Assembly: GCA_002414225.1 (NCBI GenBank)
Contig: DHYV01000019.1
Location: 54,907-118,906 of the forward strand
DNA from: Desulfobulbaceae bacterium UBA5121
Lineage (GTDB): Bacteria > Desulfobacterota > Desulfobulbia > Desulfobulbales > UBA5123
Length of the DNA stretch: 64,000 nucleotides
Reading direction: 5' to 3'
Positions within the stretch are counted from its first letter, which is position 1, and each line of letters starts with the position of its first letter. Positions 13,514 to 55,876 of the stretch are shown one piece after another. The notes under the pieces are model-generated. The model searched no databases. It saw nothing but the letters and a program-made list of their open reading frames with translations, and was not told the DNA's origin. The translations under genes were made by a program, and so were the position numbers.

Positions 13514-13717
13514 ATGGCTGAAGGTACGGTAAAATGGTTTAACGATGGCAAGGGTTTTGGGTTTATTGCCCAGGAAAATGGTCCGGACGTGTTTGTGCAC
13601 TTCTCTGCTATTCAGGGTGAGGGCTTCAAGTCCCTTGCCGAGGGCGAGCGGGTCCAGTTCGATGTGGTTGACGGCGCCAAAGGCCCCCAGGCTTCAAATG
13701 TCGTTAAGCTTTCCTAA
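13514..13717 (+). CDS. cspA: cold-shock protein (CspA family)
   Basis: 67 aa with [12 protein letters not shown] (RNP1) and VFVHFSAI (RNP2). Confidence 0.95.
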
Positions 13718-13759
13718 TCTACGTAACTGAATCGTAAAGATTAGCAGGCTGCAAGCTCC

Positions 13760-13794
13760 AACGCCCCGCGGTTTTCCGCGGGGCGTTTTTTTTT
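13760..13794 (+). terminator. rho-independent terminator after csp
   Basis: aacgccccgcgg-tttt-ccgcggggcgtt followed by a T-run. Confidence 0.8.
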
Positions 13795-36300: not shown

Positions 36301-37645
36301 GGTTCAACTCCGCCACTCGCTGAGCGCGCTTGAAAAGCTCACCGGCCGCAACTACGGCGATCCGGCCTGGCCGCTGCTGCTTTCGGTGCGGAGTGGCGCC
36401 GCGGTTTCCATGCCCGGCATGATGGCCACCATCCACAACGTGGGCCTCAACCAGGAGATTGTCGAGGAGTTTGCCGCTGCCACCGGCCAGGATTACCTGG
36501 CCTGGGACAACTACCGGCGCTTCCTGCAGTCCTGGGCAATGACCCGCGGGGTGGCTCGCGAGGAGTTCCAGGCCCTGATGGACGCGGCCAAGGCCCGCCA
36601 CGGAGTCAAGGTTAAGCGGCAGTTCACGCCCGCGCAGATGAAGGAACTGGCCCTTGAGTATCAGCGCACCATCCGTAGCGTGGGGATCGGCATTCCGGAC
36701 GACCCGTGGCTGCAGCTGGTGGGGGCGGTGGAGATGGTCATCGATTCCTGGGATACGGTCAAGACCCGCGACTACCGGGCGTTGATGGATATGTCTGAGG
36801 CGTGGGGCACGGCGGTGATCGTCCAGACCATGGTGTTCGGCAACCAGGGGACGCTGTCGGGCAGCGGCGTGCTCTTCACCGCTCACCCCTACCGCAAGGT
36901 GCGGCGGGTGGCGCTGTGGGGCGATTACGCTCCCGGCGACCAGGGCGAGGACATCGTCAGCGGCCTGGTCACCACCTATCCCATTTCGGTGGAACAGGCC
37001 GAAATCGACGGCCGTTCCAAGGAGAACAGCCTGGAGGTGCGTTTCCCCGCCATTTACCAGGAGCTTCTCGCCCTGGCCCGCGAGCTGGTCTACGACAAGG
37101 GATGGAACCCCCAGGAGATCGAGTTTACCTTCGAGGGCGAGGGCGTGAAGGATCTCTATATCCTCCAGACCCGGGACATGATCACCATCAAGAAGGACGA
37201 GAGCTTCGACGTGCTCGCCGATTCGGTGGATATCGCCGCCCACCAGCTGAGCAAGTGCATCGGGGTGAGCGGCGGGGCGCTCGCCGGCCGGGCAGTGTTC
37301 ACCGCTGATAACATCCGCCGGCTCCGCAAGGAAGACCCGGACACCCCGCTGATTCTCATCCGCCAGGACACGGTGCCCGAGGACATCAAGGAGATCTCCA
37401 TGGCCGACGGGCTCCTCACCGCCCGGGGCGGCCAGACTTCGCATGCCTCGGTGGTGGCGATCCGGCTTGAGAAGACCTGTCTGGTGGGCTGCAACAGCCT
37501 CCGGGTTTATGAGGCCGAGGAGCGGGCCGAGATCAACGGCCAGGAAATCCGTTTCGGTGACCCAATCACCATCGACGGCCGCAAGGGGTTGCTGCTCAAG
37601 GGTATGCACCCGGTGCGGCGGGAAGTGCATATCTTACCTATCTAA
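33389..37645 (+). CDS. large PPDK/PEP-synthase-related protein: unassigned helical N-terminal region + nucleotide-binding domain + phosphohistidine swivel domain, with no PEP/pyruvate TIM barrel
   Basis: 1418 aa. From about residue 920: NKGYNLTLL, SVRSGAAVSMPGMMATIHNVGLN, WGTAVIVQTMVFGN, QGEDIVSG, and TARGGQTSHASVV (His codon 37442-37444). The protein ends about 65 aa after the catalytic His. Confidence 0.9.
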   Translation: MTDNTAFVIESDALKANLLETAVTEVTIDPAFMLLTDIVRDYKGILNSLEELLYEVSHPFHNWNLILPKLRAFVLKNGGHFRRHAKGPAAVPLLAGIFFSAIAESRKNEALMGQAIEGLLAYIDNLVGSLDPATLNDYEAPLRYCGERLGELDDPTLLHVVQGHHPMKKIASRLVSFAQRQSEATGVYDLRPLGRLLKRIFALNYRYWLAEEDPLPWLNQQCAEMCDGWESGKFFAAVSHARLREHQAALEAIDIEANPAEVVKILELPSHMDIVRLYKEIPAQLVAVKSVAPEAAGGDRFAENRKLLFLFRIMDTAGLALIHEESLREINRSLVHLIRQQTFEEIESFLLTTLQLLKENVKKYPHTSLQCIQVLGSEVFDRGNSRLVEAFLWETVRFGFQYANVAGVDEDWQPLANPAHLANIRVWLNLIMQEPKWCSTLFSALIINLKLSGTCIKDTDLFQRDITRLLNHPIEPVYNLVKQFAKLLPVFFNEIGAEGVLRDVSTELDEIHRRKDRLIHFLRKQSHVESSNLIVGFIQAILEFWHTLDKEGLTSFLPPEVLLQVQPQGPFVDALHQLMVRLFAEKDIERVEDLLDWEDHRLALWLDGQKDLAENETRRFRLLVSMYRLLYQKYNLGFQEIRRQLEQAVNSGFPEMEQLLADLEICDTFECLDALLGQLEALKKTILSPEKFEAKEDIYYKRHIAVDIPSVYGRYRERKFDALGLTFRLENLANIYLEKLPKKVNLSFITRATFIRIIKCLRFYLRALQIDGITSRQLETYMSLLSGSLGIKRFSYTQYLDIFRGLSEGVKTVIYAYYTNIHENNLSIIIPQIGAGNLLTKYRGLWDDDVDSSVHRLSESFLRDLISTTFGLQHLDNFISRIYQTLESQKELLDEESLDLLMTYNPERAISFLHQRNPRANNLILLGNKGYNLTLLAGDNKPVPPGFIVTTEIFRCWPVVKSFAKAREEFMVQLRHSLSALEKLTGRNYGDPAWPLLLSVRSGAAVSMPGMMATIHNVGLNQEIVEEFAAATGQDYLAWDNYRRFLQSWAMTRGVAREEFQALMDAAKARHGVKVKRQFTPAQMKELALEYQRTIRSVGIGIPDDPWLQLVGAVEMVIDSWDTVKTRDYRALMDMSEAWGTAVIVQTMVFGNQGTLSGSGVLFTAHPYRKVRRVALWGDYAPGDQGEDIVSGLVTTYPISVEQAEIDGRSKENSLEVRFPAIYQELLALARELVYDKGWNPQEIEFTFEGEGVKDLYILQTRDMITIKKDESFDVLADSVDIAAHQLSKCIGVSGGALAGRAVFTADNIRRLRKEDPDTPLILIRQDTVPEDIKEISMADGLLTARGGQTSHASVVAIRLEKTCLVGCNSLRVYEAEERAEINGQEIRFGDPITIDGRKGLLLKGMHPVRREVHILPI

Positions 37646-37865
37646 GGTCCGGAAAGGATCCTTTCGCCCGATGGCTGCGTTGCCTGGTCGTCGCAAATGC
37701 TTGCGTACTTCCTGTACGCGGAGTTTATCCCTGTTTGTTTGAGTGAGGCTTTTGGGTTCCGGCGCGCCTTGCCTTCGAACGAAATTGCTCGTTTTCGGCG
37801 GCTGGCCATCAAGGATGGAGGCGGTTCATTGTTCAGGGGTGACCCTGTTGAGGGAGGAGGAAGGG

Positions 37866-38972
37866 ATGATCATCGGCGTACCCAGGGAGATCAAGGACAA
37901 GGAGTTTCGGGTCGGCATGGTGCCGGCCGGGGTGAAGAGCCTCGCGGATCGAGGCCACACCGTGCTGGTGGAGGCCGGGGCCGGGGCGGGCAGCGGAGTG
38001 GCCGATGCGGAATACCGGGCCGCCGGTGCCGAGATCGTCGCCGCGGCCGATCAGGTTTATGGCCGGGCCGAGCTGGTGGTCAAGGTCAAGGAACCGCTGC
38101 CGGCCGAATACGGGCTGCTGCGCGAGGGCCAGATCCTTTTCACCTATCTCCACCTGGCGCCGCTGCCCGAACTCACCCAGGCGCTTCTTGACCGCAAGGT
38201 GATCGGGATCGCCTACGAGACGGTGCGGCCCGACGACGGTTCCCTGCCGCTTTTGGCGCCCATGAGCCAGGTGGCCGGCAGGATGGCCATCCAGGCCGGA
38301 GCCCGGTTCCTCGAAAAGGAGGCCGGCGGCCGGGGCGTGCTTCTGGGAGGGGTGCCCGGGGTGGAGCGTGCCCATGTCACCATTATCGGCGCCGGCACGG
38401 TGGGCGGCAACGCCGCCAAGATGGCCATGGGGCTGGGTGCCGAGGTGACGGTGCTGGGGTTGCGCATCGATCAGTTGACCGCCCTCGAAACTCTGTACGC
38501 CGGCAAGCTTACCACCCTGTTTTCGAACCGCCATAATCTCGAAGAGGAGCTGCGTCGCGCCGACTTGGTGGTGGGGGCGGTACTCTTGCCGGGACGAAGC
38601 GCGCCCAAGCTCATCACCCGTGAGATGCTGGGCTTGATGAAGAAGGGTTCGGTGATCGTCGATGTGGCCATCGACCAGGGCGGCTGCGCCGAAACCTCCC
38701 GCCCCACCACCCACTCCGAACCGGTTTATGAGGTGGACGGGGTTCTCCACTACTGTGTCGCCAACATGCCGGGTGCGGTGCCCCGCACCTCGACCTTTGC
38801 GCTCACCAACGTCACCCTGCCCCTAGTGGAGGCCCTGGCCGACAAGGGATTCCGCCAGGCGGTGGTAGAGAACGTCGCCTTGCGGCGCGGGGTTAACGTT
38901 TACCTGGGCCGTCTGATCTGTCCGGACGTGGCCGAATCCCAGGGGCGGGTCTGCGAGGAACTGCCGTTTTAG
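37866..38972 (+). CDS. ald: alanine dehydrogenase
   Basis: [24 protein letters not shown]-terminus and the NAD fold [29 protein letters not shown]. The track ORF starts 41 codons upstream. Confidence 0.95.
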
Positions 38973-39077: not shown

Positions 39078-39800
39078 TCATTTGTCCCGGAGAAGGGGCT
39101 GCTTCTGCAATCGCTTGTAATAGAGGTTTTGCCCGTAGAGAACGGATACCGGATTATGGCCGGTAACCCGGTCCTTTACCACCATGGTGGTAACCGGAGC
39201 ATCCGAGTATCTGGTGAACAAAATGTCATGGCCCACGCACAATCCGACAATAATATTAAGGTCGGTATTGGCCTCGTTCAGAAGCCTGGCCTGAGCCACT
39301 GGATTGCAGGCCGGCTCAAAGGTGTTGGGGCGAACCTTTTCTTCCTCCGTGAGTCCAAGTTCCAACTTGTCGATACTGCCTGATTTGCAGCAGACGCTGA
39401 CCGTCTTGAAACCCTGGGCATCCAAAATGGCTGCCAGGCGGTTTGTCTCATCCAGCAAGCCGATACAGGTTGCGATGCCAATCTTCTTGTATTTCATGAA
39501 CTTGGCAAAGGCGATGGTGTCTTCCACTCTGGTCCAGCGGGCATTGATTGCATCACTGCCTGCGGCGGACTGGTAGCCGAGACCTTCCACCTGGGCCGCG
39601 ACCTTGGCTATACGGGCATCTTCCGTGTTCTCTTTGTAGAGTTCAAATGATTCCTTTATAATCTCGGCATGGTTTCTCGTCGGGCAGTTGCCCGGTTTGG
39701 CCGGTTTGTTTTTCGGGTCAACGCTCCAGCAATTGGTGCTTTCGCTTTTTCGCCAGGCGGCGCTGCATTTGCTACAGCTGAAATCATTTTGCTTGCTCAT
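39078..39800 (-). CDS. DUF1847-like metal-binding (Cys-rich) protein
   Basis: ATG at 39800 after GGGGGAGA. CSKC, CW, CP N-terminal cysteines, plus GIATCIGL and VCCKSG blocks. The family name is from memory only. Confidence 0.75.
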   Translation of the reverse strand: MSKQNDFSCSKCSAAWRKSESTNCWSVDPKNKPAKPGNCPTRNHAEIIKESFELYKENTEDARIAKVAAQVEGLGYQSAAGSDAINARWTRVEDTIAFAKFMKYKKIGIATCIGLLDETNRLAAILDAQGFKTVSVCCKSGSIDKLELGLTEEEKVRPNTFEPACNPVAQARLLNEANTDLNIIVGLCVGHDILFTRYSDAPVTTMVVKDRVTGHNPVSVLYGQNLYYKRLQKQPLLRDK

Positions 39801-39987
39801 GGTTAATCTCCCCCCCTTGCCCATCTCCTTTCGGAAAGGCTGGTTCCACATTTTTCACCATGTTCATGGGAAATGCGGCTGATGGCTCGACTCGAGGTGA
39901 TTTCGGTTCCGGAATTGACAGCTTAACCATTGGCAACTATCATTACAAATGAATACTTCGGATGTGAGCTATCACTGTTGGTGATTT

Positions 39988-41037: not shown

Positions 41038-41859
41038 TCAGGCAATCCCGTTTATCCCCACCCCATCCAGCGCCGCCAGCCGGTCGATGAGCAGTTCGAT
41101 ATCGCGGGGGCCGATGATGATGTTGCCGTGCTGGGGGGCGATGGTTTGGATGGGCAGCCCCCGGATCTGGTTCATGGCGTGGTGGAGCGCCTTGTCGCTG
41201 GTCATCACCTTGCGGTGGAAGTCGTATACGGCCTGGATGGGGCAGTAGGGGCGGTGCTCGGGGCAGGACGAGATATCGTTGCAGCTGTAACAGCGCGAGC
41301 CGAGGGAGAAGAAGATATCCTCGGCGTGGTAGTAGAAACTGCCGAAGAGGTCGCTGCTGAACAGGGTGCCGGTGGCCTCATCGTAGGTGACGAAACTGCC
41401 GGGGCTGTGGGCGTAAGGGGTGTTGATGAAGCGCAGCCGGCGGTTGTTGAGCAGAACGGCATTGTCCTGCTGGCCGATGTCTTCGATGAGGGGATAGTGG
41501 TCCTTGTGAATGTAATAGGAGATGAAGAGGTTGTTGGGCTGCGTCGACAGAATCCTGAGTTCGGGGTTTTTGCAGATGTCGATCAGGTTGGACATGGAGC
41601 CGCAGAGGTCGGGATCGTAATGCTGATAGATTAGGGCGGTGATGTTTGCCGGGTCGATACCGGCCTGGAGGATCTTCATCATCACATTGGCGAAGTCGGC
41701 GCGGCTGCCGCCGTCGATGAGCACCGCCCGGTCGCCGTCGACGACCAGATAGGGGTTGCAGTGGAGGCTGGCATCCACCTCGTGGCTGCCGACCCAGTAG
41801 ATGCCGTCGGCAACCGTTACCGGGTGGTCGATCTGCGCGGGTTCCATCATGACTGACAT
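41038..41859 (-). CDS. MBL-fold protein (flavodiiron/ODP-like or phosphodiesterase-like), Cys-rich C-terminal part
   Basis: MSVMMEPAQ... start at 41859, or 41850 with an ATGA overlap on the cyclase stop. VLIDGG, a divergent metal motif QHYDPD, TPYAHSPG, and CYSCNDISSCPEHRPYC. The upstream part of track ORF 41038..42405 is out-of-frame read-through of the cyclase gene. Confidence 0.8.
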   Translation of the reverse strand: MSVMMEPAQIDHPVTVADGIYWVGSHEVDASLHCNPYLVVDGDRAVLIDGGSRADFANVMMKILQAGIDPANITALIYQHYDPDLCGSMSNLIDICKNPELRILSTQPNNLFISYYIHKDHYPLIEDIGQQDNAVLLNNRRLRFINTPYAHSPGSFVTYDEATGTLFSSDLFGSFYYHAEDIFFSLGSRCYSCNDISSCPEHRPYCPIQAVYDFHRKVMTSDKALHHAMNQIRGLPIQTIAPQHGNIIIGPRDIELLIDRLAALDGVGINGIA

Positions 41860-42662
41860 ACCTCTGCGGGGTGTTGGCGTTCGTCGGCCACGAGATAGGC
41901 GACCATGGCCGGCTTGTTCTTGAGGGTGATGGCCCCTCGTTTTTCGAAGGCGAAAGCGTGTTCGGCCTCTCGATAGGTTGCCTGGGAGACGTTGACCCGG
42001 CCGGGGAGTCCCGCCGACTCGAAGCGGGAGGCGATGTTGACGTCGTCGCCGAAGACGTCGAACTGCATGCGTTCCGTGCCGACCACTCCGGCCATCACCT
42101 GGCCGGTATGGATGCCCAGCCGCATTGCCAGGGGGTGCTCCCGGCCGCGGTTGAATGCGCGGATGAATTCCTGCATGGCCAGACCGGCCCGGATCGCCAG
42201 GACCGGATGAGCTGCCACCTCCTCGGGGGCGCCGAACACCGCCATGTAGGAGTCGCCGATGGTCTTGACCTTGGTGCCGCCGGCGTCGGCCACCAGTCGG
42301 TCGAAGCCGCTGAAGATCGTGTCGAGGGTTTCGACGAGCTGTTCGGGCGGAACCTTTTCGGCCAGCGCGGTGAAGCCGACGAAGTCGGTGAAGAGGATGG
42401 TGCACTGATAGCGGCGCGGCGTAAAACGGCTGCGGTACTTGATCTCATCGGCCACCCCGACCGGCAAGGTGTTCTTGAGGAGGCTGTCCACTCGTTTTTC
42501 GAGCCGGACGTAGGATCTGAGCAGCTCGCTGAGCAGGCTTTTCTGGAGGGCGTCGTCCCGGATCAGCGACAGGGAGTCGAGATAGGTCAAGAGAAGGGCG
42601 TTGACCGAGTCCCGGCTGGCCTCCGCGCCTTGATAGAGCGTGAGCAGGGTATGGGTTTCCAT
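41847..42662 (-). CDS. class III adenylate/guanylate cyclase (adenylate-type residues), short helical N-terminus
   Basis: 271 aa with FTDFVGFT, VKTIGDSYMAVFG (Lys as in adenylyl cyclases), FDVFGDDVNIASRFES. AAGGA RBS. Confidence 0.9.
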   Translation of the reverse strand: METHTLLTLYQGAEASRDSVNALLLTYLDSLSLIRDDALQKSLLSELLRSYVRLEKRVDSLLKNTLPVGVADEIKYRSRFTPRRYQCTILFTDFVGFTALAEKVPPEQLVETLDTIFSGFDRLVADAGGTKVKTIGDSYMAVFGAPEEVAAHPVLAIRAGLAMQEFIRAFNRGREHPLAMRLGIHTGQVMAGVVGTERMQFDVFGDDVNIASRFESAGLPGRVNVSQATYREAEHAFAFEKRGAITLKNKPAMVAYLVADERQHPAEVCQS

Positions 42663-42696
42663 CGGGTATCCTTGGCAGCGAGAGAGGGGGGGCGGG

Positions 42697-43158
42697 TCAG
42701 CCGATGGCGTCCTTGACCGCCTGGGCTCTTGCGAGGTGAATTTCGGTTTCCTTGGCCAGTTGTTTCAACACGGAGCGCGCCTTCTCCGTCATCCCGTCGA
42801 AGTGGTTGAAGATGTTTTTTTCGAGCAGCGAGCGCTCCAGGTCAACGGTGGCGGCTACGGCATGGGACAGGGTGAGCTGGTTGTCCTCCGCCTTGGCGAG
42901 GATCTGCTCGACATATTCAATGAAGCTGCTCACCGTGTAGGTTTTGATCTTCCCCTCCTGGAAGAGCACCACTCCCTTGTCGGCGGCCTCATGGAGCTGC
43001 TGCAGCCAGCTGGCGTGCTTGTGTTCCTCCTTGGCAAGGGTGTTCCAGAGTTCCGCGTGCTGCGGAAACTGCGCGGCGAAAAGGGAATAGAGCTTGCAAA
43101 GAAGTTGTTCCTGACGGACCAGGGAGTCGAGCATCTTCTTTTGGTAGGGTTTGAGCAT
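42697..43158 (-). CDS. ferritin-like four-helix-bundle protein (possible di-iron)
   Basis: 153 aa, all-helical text, with AKEEHKH (ExxH) and a second acidic/His block KETEIH that is imperfect. 34-nt gap to the cyclase gene. Confidence 0.65.
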   Translation of the reverse strand: MLKPYQKKMLDSLVRQEQLLCKLYSLFAAQFPQHAELWNTLAKEEHKHASWLQQLHEAADKGVVLFQEGKIKTYTVSSFIEYVEQILAKAEDNQLTLSHAVAATVDLERSLLEKNIFNHFDGMTEKARSVLKQLAKETEIHLARAQAVKDAIG

Positions 43159-43373
43159 GGTTTATGCGCCTCGTCCTCGGCGTGGAGAAAATTAATCACT
43201 GGCAAACATTTAAGCCTAATTTTGGGGCGGCGGCAAGTGAGTGTTTCTGTCAGGAAGGCGGTTTTCGCCGGCGCTTCGTGTATTGCATTCCTGTCCCCCG
43301 CTGCGCTACTCTTTTTGGGAGAGATTCGGCAAACCGGGGCGTTGGTCGCGCTGGCTGCGGCAAGGGAGGGCTG

Positions 43374-44618
43374 ATGGCGCTGGAACTGGGCAGGATCATG
43401 GTCGAGGAGGTCGTCTTGGGCGAGGCGACCTGGCTCGCCGGCCGGACCTTGGTGGTGGGGCGTGAAGAGCTTGACGATTTTCTTCGCGGCAGCGACGCAC
43501 GACTCGCCCGGATCGATGTCTCCCTGGCGAGCCCCGGCGACGATTGCCGGATCGTCTGCGTCAAGGATGTCATCGAGCCGCGGGTGAAGGTGGCCGGCGA
43601 CCGGATCGGCGTCGGCCGCACCCTTATCCTCAATGGGGTGGCGGTGGTCACCTGCGGCCAGATCGTCGGCTTCCAGGAGGGGATCATCGACATGCGCGGC
43701 CCGGGTGCGGCCCATTCGCCCTTCAGCCAGACCATGAACGTGGTGCTGGATATCGCGGTGGTCGACGGCCTCTCCCCCCACCAGCACGAGGAGGCGGTCC
43801 GGCTTGCCGGGCTGCGGGCCGCCGCTTTCCTGGCCGAAGCGGCGCGCAAGGCGCGGCCCGAGGCGGTGGCGTGTTACGAGGAACTCGTGGCGAGCGCCGG
43901 TTCCCCCTCACTGCCCCGGGTGGCCTATCTCTACATGCTGCTCAGCCAGGGTCTGCTCCACGACACCTATGTCCTGGGAGAAAACGCCCAAGGCGGGCTG
44001 CCCCGCGACATCTCCCCCCTGGCGCTCCTCGACGGAGCCATCACCTCGGGCAACTGCGTCAGCGCCTGCGACAAGAACACCACCTTTCATCACCAGAACA
44101 ATCCGCTCCTTGCCGAGCTGCTGGCCCGCCACGGCCGCGAACTCAATTTCGTCGGCGTGGTGCTCACCAACGAGCCGGTGCGCTTGGCCGACAAGGAAGC
44201 GTCGGCCCGTCGGGCCGTGGCCCTTCTCATGGAGCTGGCCCCGGCCGGGGTGGTGATCAGCAAGGAGGGGTTCGGCAACCCGGACGCCGACCAGATGATG
44301 TTGATCCGCGGCCTGGAGCAGGCGGGGATCAGGACGGTATCGATCACCGACGAGTACGCCGGCCCGGACGGCGCTTCCCAGTCCCTGGCCGATATCACCG
44401 CCGAGGCCGACGCCATCGTCTCGGCGGGCAACGCCAATGCACGCATCGTCCTGCCGGCCATGGCCCGCACCTTGGGGCCCCTTGCCGACCTGAGCAGGCT
44501 GGCCGGGGCCTATCCCCAGAGCCTGCGGCCGGACGGTTCCGTGGAGATCGAGCTGCAGGGATTGATCGGCGCCACCAACCAGCTGGGCTGGCAGCGCTTG
44601 CGGGCCAGGGAGGTGTAG
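43374..44618 (+). CDS. grdE: glycine/sarcosine/betaine reductase component B proprotein (GrdE/GrdG/GrdI-like)
   Basis: ATG at 43374 after AAGGGAGGG; 414 aa. GAITSGNCVSACDKNTTFHHQNNP contains the Asn-Cys (Cys228) expected for pyruvoyl-forming self-cleavage. The stop lies 3 nt before the grdB-like start. Confidence 0.8.
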   Translation: MALELGRIMVEEVVLGEATWLAGRTLVVGREELDDFLRGSDARLARIDVSLASPGDDCRIVCVKDVIEPRVKVAGDRIGVGRTLILNGVAVVTCGQIVGFQEGIIDMRGPGAAHSPFSQTMNVVLDIAVVDGLSPHQHEEAVRLAGLRAAAFLAEAARKARPEAVACYEELVASAGSPSLPRVAYLYMLLSQGLLHDTYVLGENAQGGLPRDISPLALLDGAITSGNCVSACDKNTTFHHQNNPLLAELLARHGRELNFVGVVLTNEPVRLADKEASARRAVALLMELAPAGVVISKEGFGNPDADQMMLIRGLEQAGIRTVSITDEYAGPDGASQSLADITAEADAIVSAGNANARIVLPAMARTLGPLADLSRLAGAYPQSLRPDGSVEIELQGLIGATNQLGWQRLRAREV

Positions 44619-44621
44619 GGA

Positions 44622-45941
44622 ATGGCGATACGGGTGGTGCACTATCTGAACCAGTTCTTCGGCGGCCTGGGCGGCGAGGAGCAGGCCGGAGTCGGTCCCT
44701 CCCTGGTGGCCGGCGCCAAGGGGCCCGGCATCCTGCTGGAACGGCTCCACCCGGATCTCTTGGTGGTGGCCACGGTGGTCTGCGGCGACAACGCCCTGGC
44801 CGAGCGTCCCGAAGCCATGGTGGCCGAGATCCTCGACCTGCTGGCGCCTTTGTTTGCCGCCGGTCAGGAGGAGCGGCCGCAGCTGCTCGTCGCCGGCCCC
44901 GCCTTTAACGCCGGCCGGTACGGGCTCGCCTGCGGCGCGGTCTGTCAGGCGGTGGCCGAGCGGTACGGGATACCGGTGGTCACCGCCATGGCCCCTGAAA
45001 ACCCCGGGGTCGAGCAGTACCGCCACGCGGTGCCCATGGTCGCCACCGCCCTGGACGTGGGCGGCATGGCGGCGGCGCTTGGCGGCATGGCCGCGCTGGG
45101 CGGGAAGCTTGTCAAAGGTGTGGAGGTACTGCCGGAACGGGACGGCTATCTGCCCCAGGGGTTGCGCAGAAACGTCTGGGCGGCCGAAAGCGGGGCGCAG
45201 CGGGCGGTGGCCATGCTGCTCGCCAAGCTGCATGGCGAGCCCTTTGCCACCGAGTACGCCATGCCGGTCTTCGACCGGGTGGAGCCGGCCCCGGCCATTG
45301 CCGACCTGAGCCGCGCCACCCTGGCCCTGGTCACCTCGGGCGGCATCGTCCCCCGGGGCAACCCGGACCGCATCGAGGCGGCCAACGCCCAGAAGTACGG
45401 CGCCTATTCGCTCACCGGCCTGGCGGCCTTAAGCCCGGCAAGCCATCAGACCGCCCACGGCGGCTATGACCCCACCTACGCCAACGACGACCCCAACCGG
45501 GTGCTGCCCCTGGACGCGGTGCGGGAACTCGAGGCAACGGGCCGCATCGGCCGCCTCCATGAAACCTACTTTGCCACCGTGGGCAACGCCACCTCGGTGG
45601 CCAACGCCCGCCGTTTCGGCCAGGAGATCGCTCACCGGCTGCTGTCGGCCCGGGTGCAGGCGGTGATCCTCACCTCCACCTGAGGTACCTGCACTCGTTG
45701 CGGGGCAACGATGGTCAAGGAGATCGAACGGGCCGGGATCACGGTGGTGCACTGCTGCTCCATCGTTCCCATCTCGCTCACCGTGGGCGCCAACCGCATC
45801 GTGCCCACCGTCGCCATTCCCCACCCCTTCGGCGACCCGGCCAAGACGGTTGCCGAGGAGCGGGCGCTGCGGAGGCAGCTGGTGGAGCGGGCCCTCCAGG
45901 CCCTGGCCACCCCAGTGAGCGGCCAGCAGGTTTTTTCCTGA
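44622..45941 (+). CDS. grdB: glycine/sarcosine/betaine reductase selenoprotein B (GrdB/F/H-like); in-frame UGA at 45681-45683 read as selenocysteine
   Basis: N-terminus MAIRVVHYLNQFFGGLGGEEQA. Track ORFs 44622..45683 and 45711..45941 are in the same frame. Read-through gives TST-U-GTCTRCGATMVKEIERAGITVVHCCSIVPISLTVGANRIVP (UxxCxxC). Confidence 0.85.
45695..45711 (+). promoter_or_regulatory. SECIS-like hairpin downstream of the grdB UGA
   Basis: Perfect stem tcgttgc / gcaacga with a GGG loop, starting 11 nt after the UGA. Confidence 0.5.
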
Positions 45942-45948
45942 AATTTCC

Positions 45949-46404
45949 CTATTCTTCCCGCTTCTCCCCCAGGGTCTTGAGGATGGCGGCCAGGGCCTCT
46001 TCCTCCAACTCCAGCTCGTAGATGGCCATCTGTTCCTCCCACACCGGGGCCGGGATTTCTCCTTTCAGCTCCATGATGTGGTAGGTGGCGAGCCCCAGTC
46101 CGACCCCGGCCAGCGGCCCGGCAAAGCTCGGGTCGCCGCTGCGGAAGGTGGTGGCCATGATGGCCAGGGCGCTGGGCTGGTTGATGCCGGTCACCACCAG
46201 CAGTTCTTGGTTGCCGTACCGTTCGGCAAGGTTCTTGACCTCTTCCTGCTCCGTAAAACTTACGGCGCCGGCCGCGGTTCAGACAAAGCAGGCGGTGGCC
46301 TCGTAGAGGATCTCGCAGCCCGCCGCTCGCAGACAGGCGGCGATGGTGGTCCCGGAGATATCATCCCGTTCGCCAAAGACGATGGCCTTCTTGCCCTGCA
46401 GCAT
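45949..46404 (-). CDS. grdA: glycine reductase complex selenoprotein A; in-frame UGA (plus-strand 46279-46281) read as Sec42
   Basis: Manual translation from ATG 46404 (AAGGGAGG RBS): MLQGKKAIVFGERDDISGTTIAACLRAAGCEILYEATACFV-U-TAAGAVSF...GDPSFAGPLAGVGLGL.... This carries the CxxU motif of GrdA. The track shows only the part after the UGA (45949..46197). Confidence 0.85.
46251..46265 (-). promoter_or_regulatory. SECIS-like hairpin downstream of the grdA UGA
   Basis: Minus-strand ccgtaa-gtt-ttacgg, starting 13 nt after the UGA. Confidence 0.4.
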
Positions 46405-46435
46405 GGTTCATACCTCCCTTGCCCTGATTCAGTTG

Positions 46436-47905
46436 TCAGCTGGTACCGGCCCGCGGGTTCCGTTCCATGATGAAGGAAACCCCGTCCAGCAGGTTGGTGC
46501 AGCGGTTGAGAAAGATGCTGGCCCGGGCCAGGAACATGGCCCGCCTGATCTCGCCCCGCGCCATGGCCGCCATGGCGTGGCCCAGGTAGGGAACGGCCGA
46601 GGGGATGTGGCCCTGGGTGGGGGCAAAGCCGACCATGCCCACCCGGCCGATCCACGCCTCCATCTCCTCCTTGGCCAGTTGCCCGGCCCGCACCGCCATG
46701 GCCGCGATCTTGCGGTAGTTCTTTTTGGTCACGTCGCCGGAGCCGGCAAACTCGGTGATCTCCGGGTTCTGCAGCTCCGGGGCAAAGCGGTCGATGTCGG
46801 TGAGCTTGAGCCCCAGGGCCGTGAGCGGCGCCAACAGGTAGTGGCGGAAGACCGCCTCGTCCGAGGTGCTGGCCGCCACCGGCACCTTGCCTACCGCCCC
46901 CGGATCCAGGCGGATGACGGGATTTTCGCCGTCGTCCTCGCCGACCAGGAAGGCCATGGCGGCCAGCGCGTCGTCCAGGATCGGCATCTCGTGGTCGAGA
47001 AAGGCCTGGAACTTCATGCCCAGCTTGGCAAGCGAGCCGCCGCCCACCACCACCACGCGGCGGTGGACCCCGGCCCGGACCAGGGCCGCCGCGGTGATGA
47101 TGGCCGAGGCCGGGGCGGCGCAGAAGTTCTTGAGGTCCATGCCCGAGGCGTTAGGGCAGCCGCAGAGTTCGGCGATCGCCTTGGCCATGCCGCCGCCGCC
47201 CCGCTGGTAGCGGTCGCCGCATGCCTCCTCGCCGCAGCTGATCACGAAGTCGACCTCTTCCGGGTCGATTCCCGCCCGGTGGAGGAGCCAGGTCAGGGCC
47301 AGGCCGCCCGAGGCCTTGGTGCAGAGGTTTTCCAGGAGATGGTGGGCGGCGAGGTTCTCATCGTCGCTGCCCTCGGCCCGCAGGTCGCCGTGAAAAGAGC
47401 CGAAGACTTCGTCGTGCAGGGTGAGGGGCAGGGCCGCCGCCGGTGCCGCGGCCGGGGCGCTTTCCATGGACCGGTCAGCGAGATCGGCGCCGAAATGGGC
47501 CAGCAGGGGATGGCCGGCCAGCCGGCGGGCGAGCCGCTGCCGGTGCGTGTCGTCGCAGATGAGGAGGGGGGGCTGCAGGGCGTCGGCCCGGAGCAAGAGG
47601 CCGTAAAAGGTTTCCTGGTCGATGATCTCGCCAAAGGGGCCACGGCTGGGCGCCTTGGCGTCCGGCGGTGGCCGGAACCAGGGGCGCTCAATGCCGCCCA
47701 GTGCCTCCGGGCTGAGGTTGCCGATGAAGGTCTGGTTGGCGGGGTAGGAAACGGCCTCCTTAAAAGAGCGCAGCCGGTGGGCGAGTTGGCTGGCGAGCTC
47801 CGGCGCCCTGGCCAGTTCCCGACGCGGCTTGGAGCCGTACCGCACCAGATCCGGCACATGGGCAAGGCAGTAGGCAACACTCTTGATCACCGGCCAGCTG
47901 GGCAT
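46436..47905 (-). CDS. grdC: glycine reductase complex component C, beta subunit-like (GrdC)
   Basis: 489 aa. N-terminus MPSWPVIKSVAYCLAHVPDL; CGEEACGDRYQRGGGGMAKAIAE; MVGFAPTQGHIPSAVPY. 31-nt gap to grdA. Confidence 0.8.
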   Translation of the reverse strand: MPSWPVIKSVAYCLAHVPDLVRYGSKPRRELARAPELASQLAHRLRSFKEAVSYPANQTFIGNLSPEALGGIERPWFRPPPDAKAPSRGPFGEIIDQETFYGLLLRADALQPPLLICDDTHRQRLARRLAGHPLLAHFGADLADRSMESAPAAAPAAALPLTLHDEVFGSFHGDLRAEGSDDENLAAHHLLENLCTKASGGLALTWLLHRAGIDPEEVDFVISCGEEACGDRYQRGGGGMAKAIAELCGCPNASGMDLKNFCAAPASAIITAAALVRAGVHRRVVVVGGGSLAKLGMKFQAFLDHEMPILDDALAAMAFLVGEDDGENPVIRLDPGAVGKVPVAASTSDEAVFRHYLLAPLTALGLKLTDIDRFAPELQNPEITEFAGSGDVTKKNYRKIAAMAVRAGQLAKEEMEAWIGRVGMVGFAPTQGHIPSAVPYLGHAMAAMARGEIRRAMFLARASIFLNRCTNLLDGVSFIMERNPRAGTS

Positions 47906-48250
47906 GAATTCCTTTCTCTCGCCGAAGGAGACACCGATTGCCTGACTCCCTGGAGTTGGCTTGTGTGCCGCGTTCCAGCGCCATCTTTTCTTCTAATATA
48001 CATGAGTTGTCGGGTTCGCGGCGGTGATTTTAGCGTCTTGCAGATACTGAGCCACCGGCCGTTATGTCTTGGCCTGCCGGCATGATGCGGGGAGGGCGGA
48101 GCGGATGGCCGCCCTCCAGCCTCGGAGCGCCTCGCGTCACCCTGCTGTCCCCCTCGGTAAAAGGGGGATCTTCCGGAACCTGCCCGCCTTTTTTCGTTTT
48201 TTCGCCTTGTTCTGCTTGTGATGCGAGTCCGCCAGTTGTAAATACAGGCT

Positions 48251-48943
48251 ATGTCCTTGATCTGCGACAGTATTGGCTTCACCTATCCCGACGCCGCGCT
48301 CCCACTTTTTTCCAATGTGTCGTTCCGGTTGCCGGCACCGGGCTTTCATGCCTTTTTCGGACCATCAGGGGTGGGGAAGACCTCGCTGGCCAGGATCATC
48401 ACCGGCGGTATCGGCCGCTTTTCCGGCACGGTTACCAGCGCCGGCCTCAGAACCCTCCTCTACTCCTACAACACCGAGCGGCTCCCCGGCTGGTCCAGCG
48501 TCGGCCGCCACCTGGAACGGGTCATCCCGCCTTCGCAGCACCGCCGCCTGGCGGAACTGGTGGAAATCTTCGGGCTCGCCGACTGCATCGGCTCCCGCTT
48601 CAACCGCCTCTCCATGGGGCAGCGCAACCGGGTCAACCTGATCCGCTACCTGCTCCAGGACTGCGACCTGCTGATCATGGACGAGAGCCTGGCCAATGTC
48701 GATGAACTGACCCGGGAAAAGATCATCCTGGCCGTGAAGGCGCTCTTTCCCGAGCGCTACTTCATCTATATCTCCCACAACGTCACGGAGGTCGCCAGGT
48801 TTTGCGATGCGATCCTGGTCTTTCGCAGCGCCGACAAGGCGCCGCAGACCGTGATGGTGCAGGGGGGCAACCTCCGGGACGGGGAGAGCCTGTCGCGCTC
48901 GGCCCTGGACGCCACGCTCCTGGAGATCATGAATGCTGCCTAG
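48251..48943 (+). CDS. ABC transporter ATP-binding protein (NitT/TauT-like)
   Basis: Walker A GPSGVGKTS, signature LSMGQRNR, Walker B LLIMDES. 11-nt overlap with the permease gene. Confidence 0.9.
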   Translation: MSLICDSIGFTYPDAALPLFSNVSFRLPAPGFHAFFGPSGVGKTSLARIITGGIGRFSGTVTSAGLRTLLYSYNTERLPGWSSVGRHLERVIPPSQHRRLAELVEIFGLADCIGSRFNRLSMGQRNRVNLIRYLLQDCDLLIMDESLANVDELTREKIILAVKALFPERYFIYISHNVTEVARFCDAILVFRSADKAPQTVMVQGGNLRDGESLSRSALDATLLEIMNAA

Positions 48944-50937: not shown

Positions 50938-52629
50938 TCAATTCTGGGATGCTGTGCCTGGGCGCGATTGCTGTTCGAGCAGCGCCGCCGCCTCTGTCCC
51001 CCTGATCACCCGTGAATGGCCGGGGTTCCCGTCGGGCTCGGCAACCCCGGGCGGCAGGATAAAGGTGGTCGAATGGCCGCCGTACAGTCCTGACGGAAAG
51101 CGCATCTTCTTGCGGATCACCAGTTGGGTGGGCAGCATGATTTTGCGGACCCCGCCGTTCGAGATGGCCAGCGCCTGGTTGCTGCGGAAAATTTCCAGCG
51201 CCCCTTGTTCGACGAGTTGGGCGAGACCCGCCTGCTGGGGTAAGATTGCAAAGCGTTGCACCGGCAGGGCGGCCACCACGGTGGACGGATCGATCTCGAT
51301 GATCCCGGCCGGGTTGTACTGCTGGGCCTGCTCCCAAAGGGGGGCCGCCGGGCCGCCATGGGGGAAAACGCGGGGCCCGGCCAGGGGGTGTTTGTCGTCC
51401 TGGCTTCCCAAGGGAATACTGATCCTGTCGGCGCTGTATGTTCCGGTGATGCTGTCCGGTGGACGACCAACCGCCAGGGTGATGGCCTCCAGCGTGCGTC
51501 TCGCCTCAACGCTGTTCGGTTTGTAGAAATAGGGGAGACAACCGTTGCGCCCGGTGATGGTCACCCGCTCTTTGGCCACGCTGATCACCCCGACCCGTGG
51601 CAGATCGCCTGCCCCGCCTGTCACGGCACCGGCCACCACCCGCTCGATCCTCTCGACCGAGCCTGAGAAGCGCCAGATGTTGGCCGTGTAAGATGTCAGG
51701 ACGACATAGAGGGGTTCGGAGCCGGATTCGACCGAGATGTCGCTGACCGTCACCGTTTTGTCCTCGTCGCCGAGGCTGACGGTGGAAAGCCCCGCACCTT
51801 CGTAGGCGCCAACCAGAACGATACGGCTGTGCGCACCTGGGGACGGCAGGCCGCATGCCTTTGCCATCTCGAGGAGCTTTTCCTGCTCAGCCTGTGCTCT
51901 TTTGGCCTTCTGGTACTCCTCCCTGATTGCCTTCTCTCGGGCGCGGAAAGCGGTGGCCTCCTCTGCGCTGATCGTGCCGTTGCCGTCCTGGTCGATGGCG
52001 GCGAGCACTTGCTGCGTGGCCGCATCAAACTCGGCAAAGCTTATGGTACCGTCATGGTCGTTGTCCAGCGACAGCGGTACGAGGTCGGGGGAGGAGCCAC
52101 TGCGGTATCTCGCCGCCGAATCGCTGGCGGCCTCGCGCACCTCGGCAAAGGTTATCGTGCCGTCGTTGTCCCGGTCCCAGGCGAGCGCTTCGGTGGTGAG
52201 CTTGGCCAACATGGCGGCGCTCTGTTCAGGGGTTGGCTCAAGAGGCACCCCGTGGCCGGAAAGGGGCAGACGGGTCTGGGGGGTAAAGAAAAGTTCGATT
52301 TCCGCTCGGGTCACCTTGCCGTCGTTGTTCAGATCCCAGCGTCCCCACCGTCTGAGCATCTCGGCTCGTCTCTGGGCCTGCTTGATCTGTTGGGCGAGTT
52401 CATAATCCCGGGCGCTCACTCCATTGCCATCGATATCACTGTTGCGGAAGATCGTGCGCAGGCGCTGACGCAGGAGATCGACTTTCGTATCCTTTTGTAC
52501 GTTGTGGGAGAGCTGTAGCAGAAGCCAGTCCTCTCCCGAGGCGGCGGAGTCACTCCGCGCCGACGTCGGCGCCGATGCGACAGTGGCCATGATCATCAAT
52601 AACCCCAACAGACGAAGAGCGCTTGGCAT
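50938..52629 (-). CDS. secreted EF-hand calcium-binding protein with an unassigned C-terminal domain
   Basis: AAGAGGAG RBS and a signal peptide. Four canonical DxDxDG-type loops (DLNNDGKVTRAE, DRDNDGTITFAE, DNDHDGTISFAE, DQDGNGTISAEE) plus one divergent loop (DIDGNGVSARDY). A region of about 300 aa after them is unassigned. Confidence 0.85.
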   Translation of the reverse strand: MPSALRLLGLLMIMATVASAPTSARSDSAASGEDWLLLQLSHNVQKDTKVDLLRQRLRTIFRNSDIDGNGVSARDYELAQQIKQAQRRAEMLRRWGRWDLNNDGKVTRAEIELFFTPQTRLPLSGHGVPLEPTPEQSAAMLAKLTTEALAWDRDNDGTITFAEVREAASDSAARYRSGSSPDLVPLSLDNDHDGTISFAEFDAATQQVLAAIDQDGNGTISAEEATAFRAREKAIREEYQKAKRAQAEQEKLLEMAKACGLPSPGAHSRIVLVGAYEGAGLSTVSLGDEDKTVTVSDISVESGSEPLYVVLTSYTANIWRFSGSVERIERVVAGAVTGGAGDLPRVGVISVAKERVTITGRNGCLPYFYKPNSVEARRTLEAITLAVGRPPDSITGTYSADRISIPLGSQDDKHPLAGPRVFPHGGPAAPLWEQAQQYNPAGIIEIDPSTVVAALPVQRFAILPQQAGLAQLVEQGALEIFRSNQALAISNGGVRKIMLPTQLVIRKKMRFPSGLYGGHSTTFILPPGVAEPDGNPGHSRVIRGTEAAALLEQQSRPGTASQN

Positions 52630-52870: not shown

Positions 52871-55800
52871 TCATGGCGGCGGGCGGCCGCTGAGTGTCTC
52901 TGGGCGGCATGCCTGCCGTGGCGGCGCGCGGCCAGGCTGGTCAGCGGTGAACGGCCCGTCTTTCTGCAGAAGGGGTTGGAATTTATTGCTGAGGTCTGGA
53001 ACCCTGATGGCGGGACCGAGGCCTCCCGGCCCAGCCATTCCGACCCGGTCGGCAAGCAGGTCACCCTGGGCCGGCTGGTCTGTCCGGCTGTCGCCGAGTC
53101 CCAGGGGCGAAACAGCGGTGAACAGCCCGTATCGCGGCGCAAGACGCGGCCAAGGAAACCATGAGGCGCTTCGGGAACCCAAGCGGGATCGGGGCGTTTT
53201 TTTTCCCCGGCAGGCCGGGGCCGGGCGGCGGCAGGTGGGTGGCGGCGTGGCAGGCGGCAGGCAGCGGCGGCCGTGGTGCGGTGTCAGGGGCAGGAGCGTC
53301 GGCAGGCTGGCGGTGGGGCGCGGTTGTTCGGGTGCCTCTTCCGGGAGTTTGAAGATTTCACGGAAAGCCTTGCAGTGGCGTTGCAAGGTGGCGAAGCTGC
53401 CGTTTCCGGCCAGCCGGCCTTCGCTCACTACGTGGATGGTATCGGCATGGCGGACGAACTCGGGATCGTGGCTGATGGAGATGATGACGCGGTCCTGCCG
53501 CCACTCCTCCCGCAGGAACCGGCTCACCCGGTCGCGGCTGGCGGGGTCCAGCGCCGAGGTGGGTTCGTCCAGGATCAGGATCGGGGTGTCCCGGAGCAGT
53601 GCCCGGCCCAGGGCGATCAGTTGCCGCTGGCCGCCGGAGAGGCGCGACCCGCCGTGGCCAACCTCGAACGCCGTCCCCTGCTCGATGAAGAACTCCTGCC
53701 ACGGGCCGTGGGCCAGGAGGGCGGCGATCCTGTTTTCCAGTTCCCGCCGCAGCCGCTGGTCGGGGGCGCGGGCAGTGGCGTAGAGGAGGTTGTCCCGCCA
53801 GTTGAGGTAGGGGTGGGTCGCATCATGGCCGAACGGTTGCCAGTGGGGATGTACCACCTCCCGCAGCAGCTCGATCTCCTTGTTGAACGTCTGGAGTCGC
53901 CGGCAAAGGGACTTGATTTCCTCGGAACTGCTGTCCCACTCCTTTGGCAGCGAGGAGATGCCCACCAGGAAGAGAAGTCTTTTTTCGTGGCGGGAAGGCG
54001 GCCGCGCCAGGGAGCCGAGGCACTGGCGCCGCAGTTCCCAAACCTGGCGGGGCAACTTGAGATCCGAGCGGTTGCAGAAGTCGGAGAAGGAGTCAAGCTG
54101 CAGAAGTTCCCGGGAACTGGCGAGCAGCCGCCTGGCGCGCTCGATGAGCGGGGGGGCGAGGCCAGAGGCGGCGAGCCTGCCGGCGAGGCGGGTGCGGCCC
54201 GGCTGCAAGAGGAGGGCCGCCACTGCCTCGGCATCGGTTCTGCCGCCGAGCAGGGCATCCCAGGCCGGGGCCGCGGGATCGATCTCCCCTGTTTCAAAGG
54301 GCTGTAGGGGAATCCCCAGTTCGGCTGCCGCCTGCCGTGCCCTTTGGCGCAGTTCGGCGAGCCATTCCCCGGGCAGGGGGCGGTCGCTGGCCGTCGGCCG
54401 CATCTCAAGCGCCTTTTGCCGGCAGATGGCCGCCAGGCCTATTTTTTCCAGCCAGTCCAGCTCCATGGCGGTGAGGTAGTGGTCGCCAGCGGGGGACTTC
54501 CGTCCCAGGAGCAGGTTTTCCCGGATCGTGGTGTCGAAGAGCACCGGCTTCTGCGGCATCAGGGTACAGATGGAGGAGAGTTCTTCGTCTTCGCCGCCAT
54601 CCCGGTCCGCCAGGTGGTACCGGATCACTCCTCCCTGGGTGGGTTGGCGGCCGAGGATCATGTTGATCATGGTCGACTTTCCCGAGCCGGCGGCGCCGAC
54701 CACTGCGGCCCAGTTGCCGGCCGGGAAGGTGGCGCTGATGTCACAAACGCCGCCGTGGTGTTCGCCGCCTCGGTTGCGGTACTGGAGGGTGGCCGCCTCG
54801 GCTTCGATGACAAGCCCCTTTTCCCTGTCGGCAAAGACGATTCCACCCGACTGAGACTTTTGTTCCGGGCGGGTTTCGTATTCCAGCAACCGGCCCACGC
54901 TGTTGGCGGCAAGTTGATAGCTGATGCGCAGGGTGAGCAGTTTGGTCAGGTTGTCGAAGATGGTGGGCAGGGCAAAGATCAGCACCGGCACCACGCTGGC
55001 GTGGGTCGCCGCCGACCGGGTTTCCTGGTGGCGGCCCAGGAGAATGATCAGCACCGAAACCAGCAGGGCGGTCACCGGCCAGATGGTTTGGGAGAAGAGA
55101 ACCTTGGCGCTGGCGGTGATCCAGTCCATGTAGGCTGAGAACCTTTTCTGCTGGGGGTGAGCGAAACGGCGGAGAACGGTATCGAAGAGGCCGCCGACCT
55201 GGATCTCAGGCACGGCCTGCAGGTAGTCTTCGAAGTCTTTTTTGACCTGATCGTTGTTGTGGAAGTATTCCCGGTCTGCCCGCTGGATCGGCTGGCTGAC
55301 GTAGTGGATGTAAAAGGTTCCGGCGGTACAGAGGAGGGCCACGACGATGGCCATTCGCCAATCGGTGAGAACAAAGAAGAGCAGGTTGCTGGCGATCATG
55401 GTCAGAGCCCACCAGCCGTCCACCAGGGTCAGGCGGCGGTCCACGACCCGAGCGACGTCTACCTCCAGGCGGTTGATGATCTCGGCGAGGGAGTGGTTGC
55501 TGTAGAAGTTATCGTCCCGGCGGAGGAGGTTGCCGAGGATCATTTGCTCCAGCTCATCCCGGGCGCTGGCGTACATGCCGAGGCTCAAGACGGTTTTTTT
55601 TTCGGTGAGGACGGCCCGGAGCAGGCCGGCGACAAAAATGGTCGCCAGGAAGACAAAGGGCGCCTGGCCTGTTCCGGCCAGGTGATGCAGGGAGATGGCG
55701 AGGGCGGACTGCTCCTGCCCCGCGTTAGCACTGATTTCCTGGACCAGGGCCTGGATCAGGGAGTTTTCGAAGTAGATGATGCCGCCGGCGCAGCTGCCGA

Positions 55801-55876
55801 TGACCAGCAGGGCGGCAAGCAGGCCCCGGTAGCGCGGGCTCAGGATTGCCATACAGGTCTTGAGGTCGTTGTTCAT
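52871..55876 (-). CDS. fused ABC exporter (TMD + NBD) with a large insertion in the NBD and a Pro/Arg-rich C-terminal extension
   Basis: 1001 aa. N-terminal ABC membrane domain. Walker [10 protein letters not shown] (aa 394-402), Q-loop LMPQKP (about aa 439), signature LSGGQ only at aa 746, Walker [14 protein letters not shown]-loop ISHD. Confidence 0.85.

Follow-up and report, generated by a model that had tools for sequence, protein, structure and literature searches.

A stretch of 64,000 nucleotides of contig DHYV01000019.1 from the Desulfobulbaceae bacterium UBA5121 (hereafter the window) was analyzed for its glycine reductase genes, which lie as two pairs, grdE-grdB on the plus strand and grdC-grdA on the minus strand (Table 1). 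An earlier note on this DNA had described the pairs as convergent with 7 nt between their stop codons, and this description proved exact to the coordinate. The window sequence is identical to one contig of the metagenome-assembled genome (MAG) GCA_002448905.1, where the 414-aa gene call for grdE has an identical copy. Comparison with curated models confirmed that all four grd genes are full length and that the selenocysteine (Sec) codons and selenocysteine insertion sequence (SECIS) elements are retained.

Table 1. Features of the grd locus in the window
Feature	Position	Strand	Description
grdE	43374-44618	+	protein B proprotein, 414 aa; Pfam PF09338 Gly_reductase, E 5e-151, model positions 1-425/426
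grdB	44622-45941	+	selenoprotein B, 439 aa; TIGR01918, E 7e-171, model positions 1-430/431
grdB Sec codon	45681-45683	+	in-frame TGA within LTST-U-GTCTRC, a UxxCxxC motif; translated through
grdB SECIS	45684-45721	+	immediately 3' of the UGA; Rfam RF01990 SECIS_4, 57.7 bits (gathering score 38), E 6.5e-13
grdB/grdA spacer	45942-45948	.	7 nt between convergent stop codons; grdB stop codon up to 45941, grdA stop codon from 45949
grdA	45949-46405	-	selenoprotein A, 151 aa; NF040748, 152 bits (cutoff 130)
grdA Sec codon	46280-46282	-	in-frame TGA within CFV-U-TAAG, a CxxU redox motif; translated through
Putative grdA SECIS hairpin	46252-46266	-	5-bp stem, 5-nt loop, begins 16 nt past the UGA
grdC	46436-47905	-	protein C beta subunit, GrdD-less 'RY' type, 489 aa; NF040746, 539 bits (cutoff 450)
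grdC/ABC importer intergenic region	47906-48250	.	divergent; presumed site of the grdCA promoter

The motifs of the four products point to a division of roles like that of known glycine reductases. GrdE, a predicted self-cleaving pyruvoyl proprotein, and GrdB, a UxxCxxC selenoprotein, would form a glycine-type protein B, with GrdA as the CxxU selenoprotein carrier and GrdC as a putative thiolase-fold protein with conserved Cys262 and His433. In GrdE the predicted self-cleavage site lies between Asn and Cys of ITSGNCVSA, and cleavage there would yield the pyruvoyl group; the core of this site, SGNCVS, is common to the window protein and canonical glycine GrdE. The window GrdA shares about 41% identity with canonical GrdA proteins, which are about 71% identical among themselves. 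Its putative SECIS hairpin showed no significance when folded from the single sequence, whereas RNAalifold analysis of 20 loci of the window's own group (group A, see below) revealed compensatory changes at 3 of the 5 pairs.

The earlier note had also reported that grdD and thioredoxin genes are missing from the window, and this was borne out by searches with canonical queries. GrdD, thioredoxin reductase (TrxB) and thioredoxin (Trx) sequences from three canonical loci gave no match in the 64 kb (tblastn, E<=1e-3), nor did GrdD alone when the threshold was relaxed to E<=1. No grdD-trxBA set was found in the window or in the ~1.3 kb past its right end.

The distribution of such loci was determined by scanning GTDB, at one genome per species, with a GrdC alignment and the derived peptide patterns GDRYQRG[GA]G and D[IVL]KNFCA[AG]P. 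Among the species genomes these patterns confirmed at least 556 GrdC loci, and the best 80 of them, with 45-67% identity, were taken as the RY-type set. The RY motif was present in 81 of 81 typed loci; in the window GrdC it reads GDRYQRGGG at residues 230-238, and the C-terminus of the protein is short. The closest relatives of the window GrdC are found in the Desulfobulbales. Hosts of the best 80 loci comprise Desulfobulbales, Desulfobacter, Desulfobaccales, Deferrimicrobiaceae, Syntrophobacteraceae, Rhodospirillales with other Alphaproteobacteria, Planctomycetota, Chloroflexota, Acidimicrobiia and Bacillota, with Cytobacillus oceanisediminis and Ammoniphilus among the Bacillota.

A credible GrdD was found within 10 kb on either side in none of the best 80 loci, even at E<=1. 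The sole match to the GrdD query among them covered 38 residues with an E value of 0.5 (locus L053) and was read as chance. GrdD was likewise found in 0 of 67 non-redundant RY-type loci having at least 1.5 kb downstream of grdC, a count that takes in the window and earlier look-ups. Of the two subunits GrdC and GrdD that make up protein C, GrdC is present, and GrdD is absent from the window and from the 10 kb on either side of 67 related loci. Gene order was also highly conserved: grdA followed grdC on the same strand within 1 kb in 73 of 75 RY-type loci. On this sequence evidence the missing GrdD is a trait of a widespread lineage and not a local accident.

Within the RY type, the loci of group A and group B differ in organization. 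The convergent arrangement seen in the window was present in 23 of the 26 group-A loci with room for it, and no Trx or TrxB match was obtained in any group-A locus (E<=1e-5). The four-gene module, with grdC-grdA facing grdB-grdE and neither GrdD nor Trx, occurs in Thiovibrio sp. JS02, in Desulfogranum mediterraneum and in a 4.3 Mb alphaproteobacterial MAG, and the flanking genes are entirely different among the three. Across many species with differing flanks the module proteins share 58-81% identity. Group-B loci have the order grdE-grdB-grdC-grdA, often with trx; Trx adjoins 24 GrdD-less loci of this group.

A conserved extra gene replacing GrdD was sought by all-against-all clustering of the open reading frames (ORFs) of 80 aa or more in about 85 loci, and this candidate was rejected: no further family was common to the GrdD-less loci. 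The other families recovered were only Trx, L-threonine 3-dehydrogenase (Tdh), 2-amino-3-ketobutyrate CoA ligase (Kbl), acyl-CoA ligases and antisense shadow ORFs. A tandem pair of large AMP-dependent acyl-CoA ligase-like genes (~610 and ~950 aa) recurs upstream of grdC in seven Desulfocapsa-like loci (L010, L012, L015, L017, L027, L028 and L043). The Thiovibrio sp. JS02 locus (L003, 6416-15100) has a 983-aa sensor histidine kinase between grdA and grdB and a 117-aa ORF overlapping the grdC start; upstream are a lysine 2,3-aminomutase-like radical S-adenosylmethionine gene, two ATP-grasp ligases, an acetyltransferase, a deacetylase and then a Gate-domain transporter.

The reciprocal analysis started from GrdD. 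An alignment of GrdD from three canonical reference loci, of Enterococcus gilvus (L007), Acetoanaerobium noterae (L008) and Photobacterium sp. (L009), was used to collect 80 GrdD-centred metagenome loci. In every sampled case with upstream sequence GrdC came directly before GrdD, and no orphan GrdD was seen among the 80. The GrdC encoded beside GrdD carried GD(M/V/I)NQRGGG in 70 of 70 typeable loci, the three references included, and the RY motif in none. The canonical order is grdA-grdC-grdD, as in E. gilvus (trxB-trx-grdA-grdC-grdD-grdI-grdH), so that grdA lies upstream of grdC, the reverse of the RY type.

The two types of GrdC also differ in length and in fixed residues. The tail following DGxSF is 38-41 aa long in canonical GrdC (medians by motif subtype), whereas RY-type proteins have a median of 11 aa there, the canonical C-terminal tail being about 28 aa longer. 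Positions at least 90% conserved within each type and different between them were K26/T, R29/T, Y233/N, K259/R, K298/N and R398/K (RY/canonical, window numbering). Neighbour-joining of 144 GrdC sequences gave a tree with the two types reciprocally monophyletic at the midpoint root, and group A, the window's group of 38 sequences, was monophyletic within the RY type. Cys262, His433, D231, Q234, R235 and N396 were conserved in both types. A catalytic cysteine specific to the RY type was also considered and was ruled out, Cys262 being common to both.

The AlphaFold model of the window GrdC (mean predicted local distance difference test score, pLDDT, 77; predicted template modelling score, pTM, 0.84) had as its best PDB matches FabH, OleA and thiolases, with Foldseek E values of about 1e-9. 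The likeness to this superfamily consists in the predicted fold and in the position of Cys262, within FCAAP, which a profile alignment placed at the acyl-accepting nucleophile Cys112 of FabH. The same alignment set D231-R232-Y233-Q234 of GrdC against D84-M85-P86-F87 of FabH, a loop that we take to line the acyl pocket across the dimer interface. On the other hand, identity to FabH, OleA and thiolases is 12-20%, and GrdC is extended at its N-terminus by about 190 aa. Among solved structures there were none matching GrdE and only weak FabH matches for GrdC, and we know of no coenzyme A (CoA) or acyl carrier protein substrate of GrdC. Because Cys262, His433, D231, Q234, R235 and N396 are conserved, GrdC appears to have what an acyl-Cys enzyme needs. 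The partner missing here, GrdD, is thought to make acetyl phosphate, and has its active Cys within an invariant GMGCTGP motif. Phosphotransacetylase (Pta) sequences align with the Desulfovibrio GrdD Ddes_0116 in an iterative search (PMC12827605).

The substrate of the protein B pair had been described in the earlier note as impossible to tell by eye among glycine, sarcosine, betaine or another amine; signatures in the B pair point to the glycine type, away from sarcosine and betaine. The window GrdB matched the whole glycine-GrdB motif and not the GrdF motif, both as defined by Nobu et al. (PMC9751293), and the GrdF signatures IHGGYDR and TTGTGT are replaced in it by AHGGYDP and TVGNATSV. All group-A GrdB proteins keep xHGGYDx with TVGN[AG]Txx, nearly all keep RV[IL]PxD, and their place in a tree is alongside canonical glycine GrdB, apart from the GrdH cluster. 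The sarcosine models NF040794 and NF040793 scored 561 and 421.6 against cutoffs of 800 and 780, and the betaine model NF040795 scored 483 against 775. Identity of the window pair to GrdH and GrdI of E. gilvus was 42% and 34%, respectively. Models for D-proline reductase (PrdA/PrdB) and fluoroacetate reductase (FarE) gave only 64.5 bits against a cutoff of 700 (TIGR04480), 85.1 against 300 (TIGR04483) and 124.8 against 675 (NF053623).

Tdh and Kbl together convert threonine to glycine and acetyl-CoA. Genes for both (best matches PDB 7cgv, E 7e-131, and 3tqx, E 1.5e-72, respectively) adjoin the module in 10-11 of the 38 group-A loci. Glycine is the best-supported substrate as judged from these signatures, and is not proven.

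Other GrdD-less loci carry other B pairs: betaine-type in Desulfobacter latus, Cytobacillus and Ammoniphilus, sarcosine-like and lacking an in-frame TGA in Acidimicrobiia, and unclassified in Chloroflexota. Such pairing of A and C with several B types is expected if GrdA and RY-type GrdC form a working shared module. In Desulfobacter latus AcRS2 (L054, 10001-14810) a group-A-type grdC-grdA stands with a betaine-type, GrdH-like B pair, a combination suggesting that recombination has joined the GrdD-less A+C module to another substrate module. The GrdB homologues with TTGTGT and no TGA at the Sec position, found in four Acidimicrobiia/Actinomycetota MAGs (L048, L058, L079 and L087), may be cysteine forms.

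Taken together, we think it probable that the locus encodes a complete and functional glycine reductase of a distinct, GrdD-independent type. Glycine would form a Schiff base on the pyruvoyl group of protein B and then be deaminated, and the carboxymethyl group would move from the Sec of GrdB to that of GrdA; these steps, as far as carboxymethyl-selenoprotein A, are proposed because of the established scheme and the conserved motifs. GrdC alone would then serve as protein C, its Cys262 taking up the two-carbon unit to form an acetyl thioester. Since the phosphotransacetylase-like GrdD is missing, the acetyl group would leave GrdC directly, most likely to CoA, giving acetyl-CoA, with phosphate or water as alternative acceptors. 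Transfer to CoA is favored because of the native chemistry of the fold and the basic residues gained by the RY type, which could bind an anionic cosubstrate. Oxidised GrdA would be re-reduced, in group A, by a general thioredoxin system encoded elsewhere and acting in trans. Glycine could thus be an electron sink and a source of acetyl units and ammonia in a cytochrome-rich, Desulfobulbales-like organism, and in relatives it could come from threonine via Tdh and Kbl.

A broader proposal is put forward only tentatively, as we consider it possible and rather doubtful: that RY-type GrdC is self-sufficient, its Cys262 taking the two-carbon unit and handing it to CoA, bypassing acetyl phosphate and GrdD, and that it marks a second, 'assimilatory/respiratory' class of glycine/sarcosine/betaine reductase. 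If so, this class sits in non-fermentative bacteria (Desulfobulbales, Alphaproteobacteria, Chloroflexota, Acidimicrobiia and Bacilli) and has been missed by pathway rules that demand five Grd subunits.

Several observations weigh against a GrdD-independent glycine reductase. What the enzyme releases (acetyl-CoA, acetyl phosphate or acetate) and what the basic residues of the RY type do are matters of inference. Acetyl-enzyme and acetyl-phosphate chemistry has reportedly been placed on the active Cys of GrdD, Cys359, in work by Kohlstock et al. in 2001, and GrdC alone is not known to have activity. The clean partition between RY motif and GrdD is partly built into the sampling, each set of loci having been picked by its own defining pattern (the RY motif or GrdD). 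Only the best 80 of at least 556 RY-type loci, and likewise the best 80 GrdD loci, were examined, the neighbour-joining tree of GrdC carries no support values, and a GrdD could lie far from the cluster, the searches covering the window and the 10 kb on either side of the loci. With respect to the substrate, GrdB scored 546.9 against the glycine equivalog TIGR01917, below its cutoff of 602.2, and the window itself has no tdh or kbl genes.

It is unlikely, in our estimate, that the locus is instead a canonical glycine reductase whose GrdD, thioredoxin and thioredoxin reductase are encoded elsewhere in the genome and act in trans, the product being acetyl phosphate as in clostridia. The GrdD searches cover loci and not whole genomes, thioredoxin has in any case to be supplied in trans in this clade, and one NCBIfam equivalog model accepts both the window GrdC and its canonical counterpart, all of which such an explanation would accommodate. 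However, grdD stood immediately after grdC in all sampled canonical loci, and among the 80 GrdD loci GrdC was present wherever there was upstream room, with no GrdD standing alone. RY-type GrdC, moreover, has lost the tail of about 28 aa, acquired fixed substitutions and reversed its order with grdA, over 67-75 loci and many phyla, a pattern more in keeping with a lineage that has long lived without GrdD than with relocation of the gene. A somewhat smaller chance still is given to a reductase with a different substrate, another small amine or an alpha-substituted acetate, be it sarcosine, betaine or a compound supplied by the neighboring importer. GrdB and GrdE stay below the cutoff of each of the three substrate-specific NCBIfam models, and the highest score of GrdE, 421 bits, is with the model for the sarcosine protein GrdG, whose cutoff is 780; an SsuA/NMT1-type importer is divergent from grdC; and further GrdD-less loci clearly use non-glycine B pairs. 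These points have to be set against a GrdB that matches the whole glycine motif, lacks IHGGYDR and TTGTGT and clusters with the glycine type away from GrdH, against the Tdh/Kbl neighbors in related loci, which point to glycine, and against the importer, which is not conserved beside the module in relatives.

That the cluster is a decaying or non-functional remnant, left when a grd operon gained by horizontal transfer shed its grdD and trx genes, is in our view very improbable. GrdD and trx are indeed missing at the locus, and a published GrdBE phylogeny marks some non-Terrabacteria taxa as likely recipients of horizontal transfer (PMC9751293), but the four genes are full length against the models, both in-frame TGAs keep SECIS elements, and the module is kept at 58-81% protein identity in many species with different flanks. 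The earlier note had offered an incomplete or a repurposed protein C as possibilities. The latter comes closest, with a separate GrdC lineage that has no grdD beside it, fixed residues and a short C-terminus, whereas incompleteness finds little room given intact genes, retained Sec/SECIS features and a recurring module. Of the two features that, according to the same note, would speak against its reading, a canonical grdD-trxBA set just outside the window and ordinary glycine-specific B subunits, the first was not found in the ~1.3 kb past the right end, and the B subunits do look like ordinary glycine-type proteins.

The surroundings of the grd module agreed with the earlier description of a cytochrome-rich context, with a cyclase operon on one side and an ATP-binding cassette (ABC) importer on the other. 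Two adjacent cytochromes c, at 14112-15011 (-) and 15032-15859 (-), have 12 CXXCH motifs each and cytochrome c3/c7-like Pfam matches, and a fumarate reductase/succinate dehydrogenase flavoprotein is encoded at 8469-10382, a context that fits a respiring organism. No glycine cleavage or formate-tetrahydrofolate ligase genes were found among the window genes annotated, a result that neither supports nor argues against a reductive-glycine role here. The importer, of the SsuA/NMT1 type, adjoins grdC and is divergently transcribed. Beside grdE, at 41038-43158 (-), three genes form an operon that looks like an O2- or redox-sensing cyclic-nucleotide signalling unit; their products, of 153, 271 and 270 aa, are respectively rubrerythrin-like, a nucleotide cyclase and a di-iron protein of the metallo-beta-lactamase/ODP kind. 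Neither this operon nor the importer is kept beside the grd module in relatives.

Searches for regulatory elements were negative. For a riboswitch or cis-regulatory RNA upstream of grdE or grdC, Rfam returned chance-level matches only (E<=1). The 47906-48250 region had no Rfam match and no consensus promoter, and a repeat scan there revealed nothing of note. Promoter and terminator scans over 42600-48400 gave no more sites than in shuffled sequence, and a stem-loop with U-run at the 3' end of grdB had no significance. Elsewhere in the window, an Rfam cspA thermoregulator match (13329-13790, +; 84.6 bits, gathering score 78) spans a 5' untranslated region of about 185 nt and a 67-aa CspA-family ORF (13514-13717); the model is of the enterobacterial type, yet the match is in a Desulfobulbales-like MAG. 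A 563-aa secreted-looking protein with faint EF-hand matches (50938-52629, -) lies beside an ABC protein of 1001 aa (52871-55876, -), which combines two ATPase domains with a long extension at the C-terminus. A 1418-aa protein with PPDK_N and PEP-utilizer domains (33389-37645, +) is followed downstream by an alanine dehydrogenase-like gene (37743-38972) and a DUF1847 gene (39078-39851, -).

Glycine reductase is a textbook selenium enzyme that conserves energy via acetyl phosphate, and one branch of the reductive glycine pathway of CO2 fixation depends on it for a key step. If hundreds of species across phyla run it without GrdD, the division of labor within protein C needs to be revisited, and product and energy yield may differ, for example as acetyl-CoA formed without substrate-level phosphorylation. 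Pathway calls that demand GrdD (KEGG-style completeness, reductive glycine surveys) may in that case undercount or misread glycine, sarcosine and betaine reduction, an undercount that would concern sediments, subsurface and soils. R232/Y233, K26/R29, K298 and the loss of the C-terminal tail are direct targets for mutagenesis.

The canonical complex of Peptoclostridium acidaminophilum, Acetoanaerobium sticklandii and Clostridioides difficile consists of GrdE/B, GrdA, GrdC with GrdD, and TrxB/TrxA. The window locus resembles it in having B, A and GrdC proteins of the same families, with the CxxU, UxxCxxC and SGNCVS motifs and Cys262/His433 of GrdC. It differs in having no GrdD, trxB or trxA, in its converging operons and in the order grdC-grdA instead of grdA-grdC-grdD. 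The window GrdC is 40-44% identical to canonical GrdC and has GDRYQRGGG in place of GD(M/V/I)NQRGGG, without the tail of about 28 aa.

Desulfovibrio desulfuricans G11 / ATCC 27774, a cytochrome-rich sulfate reducer of the former Deltaproteobacteria, likewise has a glycine reductase, which there serves the reductive glycine pathway (PMC7547702). Its cluster is, however, canonical, with both protein C subunits (Ddes_0115 grdC beside Ddes_0116 grdD), a thioredoxin-domain protein and a thioredoxin reductase, of which the window has only grdC; the reductive-glycine role suggested earlier from this organism is therefore not directly transferable. The survey of Desulfobacterota in PMC12827605 included no Grd-bearing species of this clade. 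Full-text searching of the literature found nothing on a GrdD-less Grd or on DUF5940, and the only published trace of the GrdD-less form that we found comes from Lost City MAGs, for which 'GrdEBCA' clusters are listed together with SelA, SelB and TrxA (PMC9469722) and treated as ordinary glycine reductase, the missing GrdD passing without comment. These clusters have four grd genes without GrdD in the order of the group-B loci, whereas the group-A form of the window also lacks trx and has convergent gene pairs. Relative to known glycine reductases, we rate as new a protein C that probably does without GrdD, together with a GrdA lineage and an order of genes of its own.

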